NCBI RefSeq assembly: GCF_000026545.1
Contig: NC_011601.1
Length of the DNA: 64,000 nt
From: Escherichia coli O127:H6 str. E2348/69
GTDB lineage: Bacteria > Pseudomonadota > Gammaproteobacteria > Enterobacterales > Enterobacteriaceae
Reading direction: 5' to 3' (one strand)
Below, in pieces: positions 49,301 to 52,145 of this stretch. How positions within the stretch are numbered: position 1 is the first letter of the stretch; each line of letters begins with the position of its first letter. The position numbers were made by a program.

Positions 49301-52145
49301 CTCGCGGTCAGAGACGCCAAGCGTGCTAAAGAGTACGCGTTCAACGCCCGTCGTACCAGGAAGAGGTATATCATTAATCAGCCGCGCCAGCCCGCTACCT
49401 AAGGGACGCGCCAGCACCATTAATACCAGTAAAAACGTGGCAATCAGTAAGAACCCTTGCGCAGCCATCAGAACGCCTCCGCATTGATCAGGGCATAAAC
49501 CAGATAACCCAGTAATAAAAACACCAGCAACACGCCGGTTATCACGCCTGCACTCACAGTGCACCTCCAGTGGCCTAAAAGTGATACCGGAAGGGTAGAG
49601 TTCTGGCTGCAAAGATTTCGCAAAAATCTGCGGGCGTGGTGTAAAAAAAGTATAAAAATGGCAAAAGCCATGGTTTAACTAATGTTTAGTATTAATTTAA
49701 CTTTTATGTAACTTAATTACACGGTGAATGTAAATAAACCATCAATAAGCAAAAATAAGTGGTCGGATGAGTAGTAAAATTACACAAACAGCGGTACTAT
49801 TTTCATCAGATAAACGAATTCATTTTTCCGGTGCTATTCACCGGGTAGATACAAAAGGGGGAGAAAAGTATGGAACTCTACAAAGAATATCCTGCATGGC
49901 TTATCTTTTTACGCCGTACTTGTGCGGTTGCAGCGGGCGTTCTGGCGCTGCCTTTCATGCTTTTCTGGAAAGACCGCGCCCGCTTTTATAGCTACCTGCA
50001 CCGCGTCTGGTCGAAAACCAGCGATAAACCGGTGTGGATGGATCAGGCCGAAAAGGCAACCGGTGATTTTTATTGATTGCTAAACATGACGTTCAAAGAA
50101 AACCGCCAGCGGAGACGCTGGCGATTTTCTTTTTTCGGCGTCTACACTTACTCCTGTAAACCGTTCAGGAGCAGTAATGAATCAACAACTTTTTGATGAC
50201 AGCACCCTTATCCGCATTTTTGCTTTGCATGAGTTACACAATCTCAAAGATCGAGGACTAACGCGCGGGGCGCTTCTCGATTATCACAGCCGCTATAAAC
50301 TCGTCTTTCTGGCGCATTCTCAGCCGGAGTACCGCAAACTTGGCCCGTTTGTGGCTGATATTCACCGGTGGCAAAGTCTGGATGACTATTACAACCAGTA
50401 CCGCCAACGCGTAATTGTTTTGCTTTCTCACCCTGCCAACCGGCGTGATCATACTAACGTTTTGATGCACGTTCAGGGATATTTTCGCCCACATATTGAT
50501 TCCACAGAACGCCAGCAGCTGGCAGCGCTTATCGACAGTTATCGCCGTGGCGAGCAACCGCTTCTTGCGCCGCTGATGCGTATCAAACACTATATGGCGC
50601 TTTATCCTGACGCCTGGCTTTCAGGGCAGCGTTATTTCGAACTTTGGCCGCGTGTGATTAACTTGCGCCATGCAGGAGTTTTATGACTACCCATCTGGTC
50701 TGGTTTCGCCAGGATTTACGTCAGCACGATAATCTCGCGCTGGCTGCCGCCTGCCGCAATTCGTCTGCGCGCGTGCTGGCGTTGTATATCGCTACACCAC
50801 GCCAGTGGGCGGTGCATAATGTGTCGCCGCGTCAGGCTGAACTTATCAATACACAACTTAATGCGCTGCAAAACGCGCTGGCGGAAAAAGGCATTCCTTT
50901 ATTGTTCCGCGAAGTGGATGACTTTGCCGCCAGCGTCGAAATAGTTAAACAGGTGTGCGCGGAAAATCGTGTTACCCATCTGTTTTATAACTATCAGTAT
51001 GAGGTGAATGAGCGGGCGCGGGATGTGCAGGCTGAGAGGGCGCTGCGTAACGTGGTGTGTGAAGGATTTGACGACGGCGTGATCCTGCCGCCGGGGGCGG
51101 TGATGACTGGCAATCATGAGATGTACAAAGTCTTTACGCCATTTAAAAACGCCTGGCTTAAACGGCTGCGAGAAGGGATGCCGGAGTGCGTCGCTGCGCC
51201 AAAAGTACGTAGTAGCGGATCGATAGATCCCGCGCCATCCATTACGCTGAATTATCCTCGTCAGCCTTTCGATACTGCGCATTTCCCGGTGGAAGAGAAA
51301 GCGGCGATTGCGCAATTACGCCAGTTTTGCCAGAACGGTGCCGGAGAGTATGAGCAACAGCGAGATTTCCCTGCGGTAGAAGGCACCAGCCGTTTGTCCG
51401 CCAGCCTGGCAACGGGCGGGTTATCGCCTCGCCAGTGTTTGCATCGCCTGTTGGCGGAACAGCCGCAGGCGCTGGACGGTGGGGCCGGTAGTATCTGGCT
51501 TAATGAGCTGATCTGGCGCGAGTTTTACCGTCATCTGATAACGTATTACCCCTCGCTGTGTAAACATCGTCCGTTTATTGTCTGGACCGACCGCGTGCAG
51601 TGGCAGAGCAATTCCGCGCATTTAAAGGCCTGGCAGGAAGGCAAAACGGGATACCCGATTGTTGATGCTGCCATGCGTCAGCTTAACAGCACCGGCTGGA
51701 TGCATAACCGGCTACGGATGATTACAGCCAGTTTTTTGGTGAAAGATTTATTGATCGACTGGCGCGAAGGTGAGCGATATTTCATGTCGCAGCTGATTGA
51801 TGGTGATTTGGCAGCCAATAACGGTGGCTGGCAGTGGGCCGCTTCAACCGGAACCGATGCAGCGCCGTATTTTCGTATTTTTAACCCGACAACCCAGGGC
51901 GAGAAATTTGACCGTGAGGGCGAGTTTATCCGCCAGTGGCTACCGGAACTGCGCGATGTGCCAGGGAAAGTGGTGCATGAGCCGTGGAAGTGGGCGCAGA
52001 AAGCAGGTGTGACGCTGGATTATCCGCAACCGATAGTTGATCACAAAGAGGCAAGGCTGCGAACGCTGGCAGCGTACGAAGAAGCGAGGAAAGGAGCCTG
52101 ATAAAACGCAGCGAGCGTTTTATCAGGCATGGTGCTGGCTTATTA

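Follow-up and report, generated by a model that had tools for sequence, protein, structure and literature searches.

The window analysed here, a 64-kb stretch of the chromosome of Escherichia coli O127:H6 strain E2348/69, carries the kdp-ybfA-ybgA-phrB region. Reading from the left, kdpB (45724-47772, minus strand) is followed by kdpA and kdpF, both also on the minus strand, and then by ybfA (49870-50076, plus strand), an ATG-initiated ORF of 68 aa in the DUF2517/YbfA family, whose name was taken from the RefSeq annotation of an identical E2348/69 record and whose product is 97% identical at the amino acid level to K-12 b0699. On the right lies ybgA (50177-50686, plus strand), an ATG-initiated ORF of 169 aa in the DUF1722/YbgA family that is preceded by a Shine-Dalgarno sequence, AGGAG, at positions 50167-50171. 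Its 3' end overlaps the start of phrB (50683-52101, plus strand), identified as a deoxyribodipyrimidine photolyase gene from the ORF list and the annotation, by 4 nt in an operon-like arrangement, and phrB is followed by dtpD on the minus strand and then by ybgI. In the RefSeq annotation of the identical record, kdpF, ybfA, ybgA, and phrB are consecutive, with zero features between them, and a 1-kb query across the ybfA-ybgA junction showed the window to be 100% identical to the closed, complete E2348/69 chromosome (NZ_CP059840.2).

The spacer between ybfA and ybgA (50077-50176, plus strand), which an earlier note made from the sequence alone had put at about 100 bp, is exactly 100 bp long, with ybfA ending at 50076 and ybgA starting at 50177, and it is the empty counterpart of the site that holds the RhsC element in K-12. 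The same note had described a clean intrinsic terminator after ybfA followed directly by ybgA, and both the terminator scan and the folding of the spacer agree with this description. The predicted ybfA terminator (50104-50135, plus strand) consists of a stem-loop at 50104-50123 and a T-tract at about 50125-50135. The hairpin, CGCCAGCG-GAGA-CGCTGGCG, was the sole plus-strand site that the terminator scan found in the spacer; it starts 27 nt past the ybfA stop codon and has a stem of 8 pairs, 7 of which are G-C, closed by a loop of 4 nt. An A-rich run, GAAAA (50098-50102), lies just 5' of the hairpin, and a T-run, ATTTTCTTTT (its tail also written as ATTTTCTTTTTT), lies directly 3' of it. The RNA of the 100-nt spacer was predicted to fold at -38.6 kcal/mol, as opposed to -21.1 +/- 2.8 kcal/mol for dinucleotide shuffles (z = -6.3), and none of 200 shuffles folded as well. 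When the locus was aligned across genera, Citrobacter, Enterobacter, and Trabulsiella were seen to have a hairpin and T-run in the corresponding position, their stems differing in sequence while remaining complementary. As judged from sequence, then, the hairpin and T-run have the features expected of an intrinsic (Rho-independent) terminator. No known RNA family was detected in an Rfam scan of positions 49400-50400 (E <= 1), the three sub-threshold matches being chance matches of 17-21 bits against gathering scores of 43-114.

Downstream of the T-tract, the cross-genus alignment revealed a conserved box, CGTCTACACTTA (50139-50150, plus strand), which is found in empty and occupied Escherichia alleles as well as in Citrobacter, Enterobacter, and Trabulsiella. 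The spacer is made up of the predicted ybfA intrinsic terminator, some 10 nt, and a conserved region just upstream of ybgA-phrB, and of nothing else.

Comparison with the RhsC element of K-12

The earlier note had stated that K-12 carries the RhsC element and associated ORFs between ybfA and ybgA, and this was correct. In K-12 MG1655 (NC_000913.3), seven features lie between ybfA (b0699) and ybgA (b0707), namely rhsC (b0700), ybfB, ybfO, ybfC, ybfQ, ybfL, and ybfD, with ybfO and ybfL being pseudogenes, and alignment of the K-12 ybfA-ybgA interval to the window confirmed that the two genes are not adjacent in that strain. By pairwise local alignment, the segment present only in K-12 spans positions 1894-11452 of the K-12 locus (L001), or about 9.56 kb. 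Homology in the left flank stops at window position 50128 (L001 1893), and homology in the right flank restarts within 50128-50139 (L001 11453-11464). Both flanks of the K-12 element are therefore present in the window, collinear up to 50128 and again from 50139, and directly joined. E2348/69 shares with K-12 the site of the RhsC element (rhs locus 5) and lacks the element itself, including the rhs core, ybfB/ybfO/ybfC, and the H-repeat copies ybfQ/ybfL/ybfD; what the window carries is an empty allele, and not a member of the Rhs family.

The right edge of the element was also mapped using a 76-bp junction query. In occupied genomes, among them ATCC 8739, B, O157:H7, O26, and O111, the right-flank match begins exactly at query position 45, which corresponds to window position 50139, the C of CGTCTACAC. 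From these alignment breakpoints, the position of the RhsC element in K-12 and most other E. coli maps to 50128-50139, a placement that is ambiguous within about 10 nt. For the roughly 10 nt at 50129-50138 (CTTTTTTCGG), occupied alleles offer no clear counterpart. In occupied strains, an Rhs composite of about 9.6 kb is lodged between the terminator T-tract and the CGTCTACACTTA box, which places it between a terminator and the conserved region that precedes the photolyase operon. Its parts are the core rhs gene, a toxin tip followed by small ORFs, H-repeat copies, and an orphan tip. The clean empty allele pins the RhsC insertion point to about 10 nt and can be used as a reference for it. Neither direct nor inverted repeats, nor a target-site duplication, were found at the two K-12 element junctions, and the lack of target-site duplication and terminal inverted repeats at the K-12 ends leaves a transposon-like mechanism of insertion or excision unsupported.

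We also searched for remnants of the element, which the earlier note had not seen at the junction. The sought rhs core was an ORF of about 1,400 aa with YD/RHS repeats; a tblastn search of the whole 64-kb window with K-12 RhsC (1,397 aa) returned a best E value of 1.2 and revealed no rhs core. Searches of the window by tblastn with YbfB, YbfO, and YbfC, which represent the tip, the small downstream ORF, and orphan tips, gave nothing with E < 0.8, and those with the H-repeat (ISAs1-like) proteins YbfQ, YbfL, and YbfD gave nothing with E < 0.39. At the nucleotide level, the 9.56-kb K-12 insert retrieved only chance matches of 19-27 bp from the window by blastn (best E = 0.15), and the annotation of the identical E2348/69 record contains no Rhs or RHS-repeat CDS over the whole 64 kb. 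The absence of any Rhs core, H-repeat, or toxin/immunity remnant consequently extends from the spacer to the entire 64 kb. Nor is there an excision or deletion scar at the E2348/69 site, where no element-derived bases and no IS were found and the flanking genes are intact.

Distribution of the empty site in E. coli

Of the 5424 complete E. coli genomes that the 1-kb query matched, 1310 had the empty junction contiguous, and it was present in 1297 of 5426 complete E. coli genomes (about 24%) when the 76-bp query was used with at least 80% of its length covered. The K-12-type left junction, in which ybfA and its terminator are followed by rhsC, was found in 3,679 genomes (about 68%), and the remaining roughly 8% of complete E. 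coli genomes have other structures. Named strains that share the contiguous junction of E2348/69 include the type strain ATCC 11775, as well as LF82, APEC O1, and an isolate of ST131. Going by strain names, we take the E. coli genomes with the empty site to be mostly of phylogroup B2, as we do ATCC 11775, LF82, APEC O1, and ST131. The 76-bp junction of the common B2 allele shows 4 mismatches to that of E2348/69 (94.7% identity), and the two differ in nothing else of substance. In CFT073, presumably also of phylogroup B2, the K-12 left-junction query matched over its ybfA part only, and a homologue of the rhsC 5' end was absent from the whole genome. Hill and colleagues reportedly found in 1995 (Genetics 141:15) that the presence of RhsA-B-C-F is correlated with ECOR clonal groups.

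The interval between kdpA and phr is designated rhs locus 5 by Jackson et al. 2009 (PMC2935791), whose table lists zero rhs genes of every clade in E2348/69 (NC_011601), CFT073, UTI89, 536, APEC O1, and SMS-3-5. The same study describes one group of pathogenic strains without the clade I expansion, in which only vestiges at loci 1 and 6 are present. In the E. coli W genome paper, b0699-b0706 are tabulated as an Rhs region that is variable between strains. The empty RhsC site of E2348/69 is a common strain polymorphism that has already been published. Its significance is slight beyond a correct annotation of E2348/69 as lacking RhsC at the classical kdp-phr locus, and the absence of RhsC agrees with published work in which B2-group E. 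coli, E2348/69 included, are without intact Rhs toxin systems.

The locus in other genera and other Escherichia

For outgroup comparison, GTDB species representatives were scanned with YbgA using exact peptide patterns, yielding 21 loci; this sample is adequate though not exhaustive, as Salmonella, E. fergusonii, and the E. coli representative are not among the 21. The genes kdpA, ybfA, ybgA, and phrB adjoin one another in Enterobacter sp. JUb54, Trabulsiella, and five Citrobacter loci, where about 100-180 bp separate ybfA from ybgA. In Dickeya, Erwinia, Pragia, and Budvicia, the interval from ybfA to the downstream ybgA is 0.5-0.8 kb, and that in Samsonia is about 2.2 kb. The proteins of the K-12 RhsC element had no match at E <= 1e-5 in any of these loci. 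Citrobacter, Enterobacter, and Trabulsiella share with E2348/69 not only the gene order but also the layout of the spacer, which runs from hairpin to T-run to a spacer of 8-10 nt to a (C)GTCTACACTTA box. They differ from E2348/69 in their YbgA proteins (57-69% amino acid identity) and in the sequence of the hairpin stems, which are still complementary, and the Citrobacter ybgA ORF starts further upstream than that of E2348/69.

An empty spacer, of 104 bp, was also found in two loci (L004 and L006) which are only about 90% identical to E. coli DNA across ybgA-phrB-dtpD, indicating that they represent separate Escherichia lineages; their probable affiliation is with other Escherichia species or cryptic clades. 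We would like to note that both are labelled as E. coli (L004 as CP089930.1, "E. coli E69", and L006 as NZ_JAATUR010000017.1, "E. coli SCPM-O-B-8794"). In the roughly 10 nt between the T-run and the box, the E2348/69 sequence TTTTTTCGG resembles that of the empty L004 allele, GTTTTCGC, rather than the Rhs right end, CATTTCTCAA. The occupied-type right end, in which ...CACAAATATCATTTCYCAA runs directly into CGTCTACAC, was present in 4 of the 6 non-coli Escherichia species representatives recovered, these being E. whittamii, E. albertii, Escherichia sp. E1V33, and Escherichia sp. MOD1-EC7003. Its occurrence in four other Escherichia species implies that the polymorphism either predates E. coli or has passed between species.

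Three of the occupied-type Escherichia draft contigs (L005, L007, and L003) break between 124 and about 2,150 bp upstream of ybgA, as would be expected beside a repeat. Since Rhs cores are long repeats at which short-read assemblies break, as these contig ends near ybgA illustrate, the short junction of E2348/69 could in principle be unreal, a repeated Rhs element having been collapsed or dropped during assembly. We rejected this explanation as wildly improbable, because the window matches a closed, complete E2348/69 chromosome without a difference, the same junction occurs in about 1,300 independently assembled complete genomes, and the junction reads through a coherent terminator that is common to other genera.

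Origin of the empty state

We consider the spacer to be the ancestral-type, unoccupied form of the RhsC site (rhs locus 5), which is held by the element in K-12 and most E. coli, and assign this reading a probability of roughly three in four. Because the empty layout is common to Citrobacter, Enterobacter, Trabulsiella, and two non-coli Escherichia, the empty allele appears to be the ancestral form, and this layout in other genera, together with the lack of a scar, makes "unoccupied site" a better description than "deleted element". The earlier note's reading of the junction as an unoccupied Rhs site is thereby supported, given that the K-12 flanks are joined without a scar and that other genera share the arrangement. 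We infer that the lineage of the E2348/69 allele either never carried the element or regained a never-occupied allele by homologous recombination. From sequence data alone, vertical descent from a never-occupied ancestor and homologous replacement by an empty allele would look the same.

The divergence of the flanks bears on the age of the two states. In 500-bp bins, identity between E2348/69 and K-12 is lowest at the junction (89.8% in 50000-50499), is 92-95% in the neighbouring bins (48500-53000) and 93-95% through phrB, and is about 97-98% at 53500-56499, with about 97.6% in longer aligned blocks further left. The K-12 ybgA gene, moreover, is 96.3% identical to that of the occupied Escherichia sp. 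E1V33 and only 93.3% identical to that of E2348/69. The divergence at the junction and the affinities of ybgA are consistent with two old haplotypes that have recombined little across the indel.

Alternatively, the ancestor of E2348/69 and the B2 group may have had RhsC, which was later removed. Occupied-type right junctions are indeed present in four other Escherichia species, E. albertii and E. whittamii among them, and Jackson et al. 2009 (PMC2935791), reasoning from E. albertii, inferred that an rhs was already present at this locus in the E. coli ancestor, in which case a B2-type empty site would be a loss. Rhs loci do also undergo deletion, as in DETEC-S586 (L024, NZ_CP116074.1, 3377-4260), which has K-12-like flanks. 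There, about 60 bp of foreign sequence and then an IS1 separate the ybfA terminator from a ybgA gene that is truncated at about codon 9, its first ~8 codons being gone. This is a true secondary loss at the ybfA-ybgA locus, and it looks unlike E2348/69: the single clear deletion that we saw left behind an IS1 and a truncated ybgA, whereas a deletion in the E2348/69 lineage would have needed a base-exact return to the layout of Citrobacter, Enterobacter, and the two Escherichia, including the roughly 10 nt missing from occupied alleles. There are, furthermore, no repeats at the element ends that could mediate precise excision, and the peak of divergence between empty and occupied flanks at the junction is a poor fit for a recent deletion from a K-12-like allele. 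A precise deletion of the element is therefore unlikely. Loss could also have come about by recombinational replacement with an empty allele, but this amounts to inheriting a never-occupied allele. Weighing these points, we regard secondary loss as improbable, at well under half the weight of the ancestral-type unoccupied site, although it is the alternative to be taken most seriously.

Possible effect on ybgA-phrB expression

The conserved box CGTCTACACTTA contains a -10-like sequence, TACACT, at 50143-50148. No promoter was called by a sigma-70 consensus scan of positions 49600-50400, so that reading TACACT as a -10 element draws on its conservation only, and no mapped ybgA or phr promoter or start site was found in the searchable literature. 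On that footing, the box may form part of a putative ybgA-phrB promoter. The putative -35 position is taken up by the terminator T-tract in empty alleles and by the Rhs right end, with TTCACA 19 nt upstream, in occupied alleles. As the element lies directly upstream of the conserved TACACT, the sequence at the -35 position is wholly different between empty and occupied alleles, and for this reason the RhsC polymorphism might change expression of the photolyase operon. A regulatory effect of RhsC occupancy on ybgA-phrB is, nevertheless, speculation on our part. That such an effect exists, and that the two alleles, whose flanks are unusually divergent and which occur in several Escherichia species, represent an old polymorphism kept by selection and not a neutral indel, seems to us doubtful, and somewhat more so than secondary loss of the element.

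Other differences from K-12 in the window

Several further differences from K-12 were observed elsewhere in the window. A 9.1-kb island between nagE and glnS (19450-28579) is absent from K-12. Its annotated products include a DeoR regulator, a D-threonate 4-phosphate dehydrogenase, a D-threonate kinase (dtnK), and an iron-containing alcohol dehydrogenase, as well as a DHDPS-family protein, TerC, a sialidase-family protein, NanQ/YiaL, and an SLC13 permease. Between gltI and lnt, about 2.2 kb (approximately 901-3072) have no counterpart in K-12, which has IS5D there; this segment carries the gene for a rhomboid-family intramembrane serine protease of 625 aa.

Two groups of K-12 genes are missing. 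At approximately 37642-37670, the K-12 genes ybfP-ybfG-ybfI (about 1.7 kb, pgm to potE) are lacking, leaving a gap of 56 bp between pgm and potE. At 59381-59418, the K-12 fimbrial operon ybgO-ybgP-ybgQ-ybgD (about 4.8 kb) is absent, its sole remnant being a truncated type 1 fimbrial pseudogene beside gltA (approximately 58989-59384). Finally, the tRNA cluster after ubiF (approximately 10156-10750) comprises six genes (Met, Leu, Gln, Gln, Met, Gln) compared to seven in K-12, having one tRNA-Gln copy fewer.
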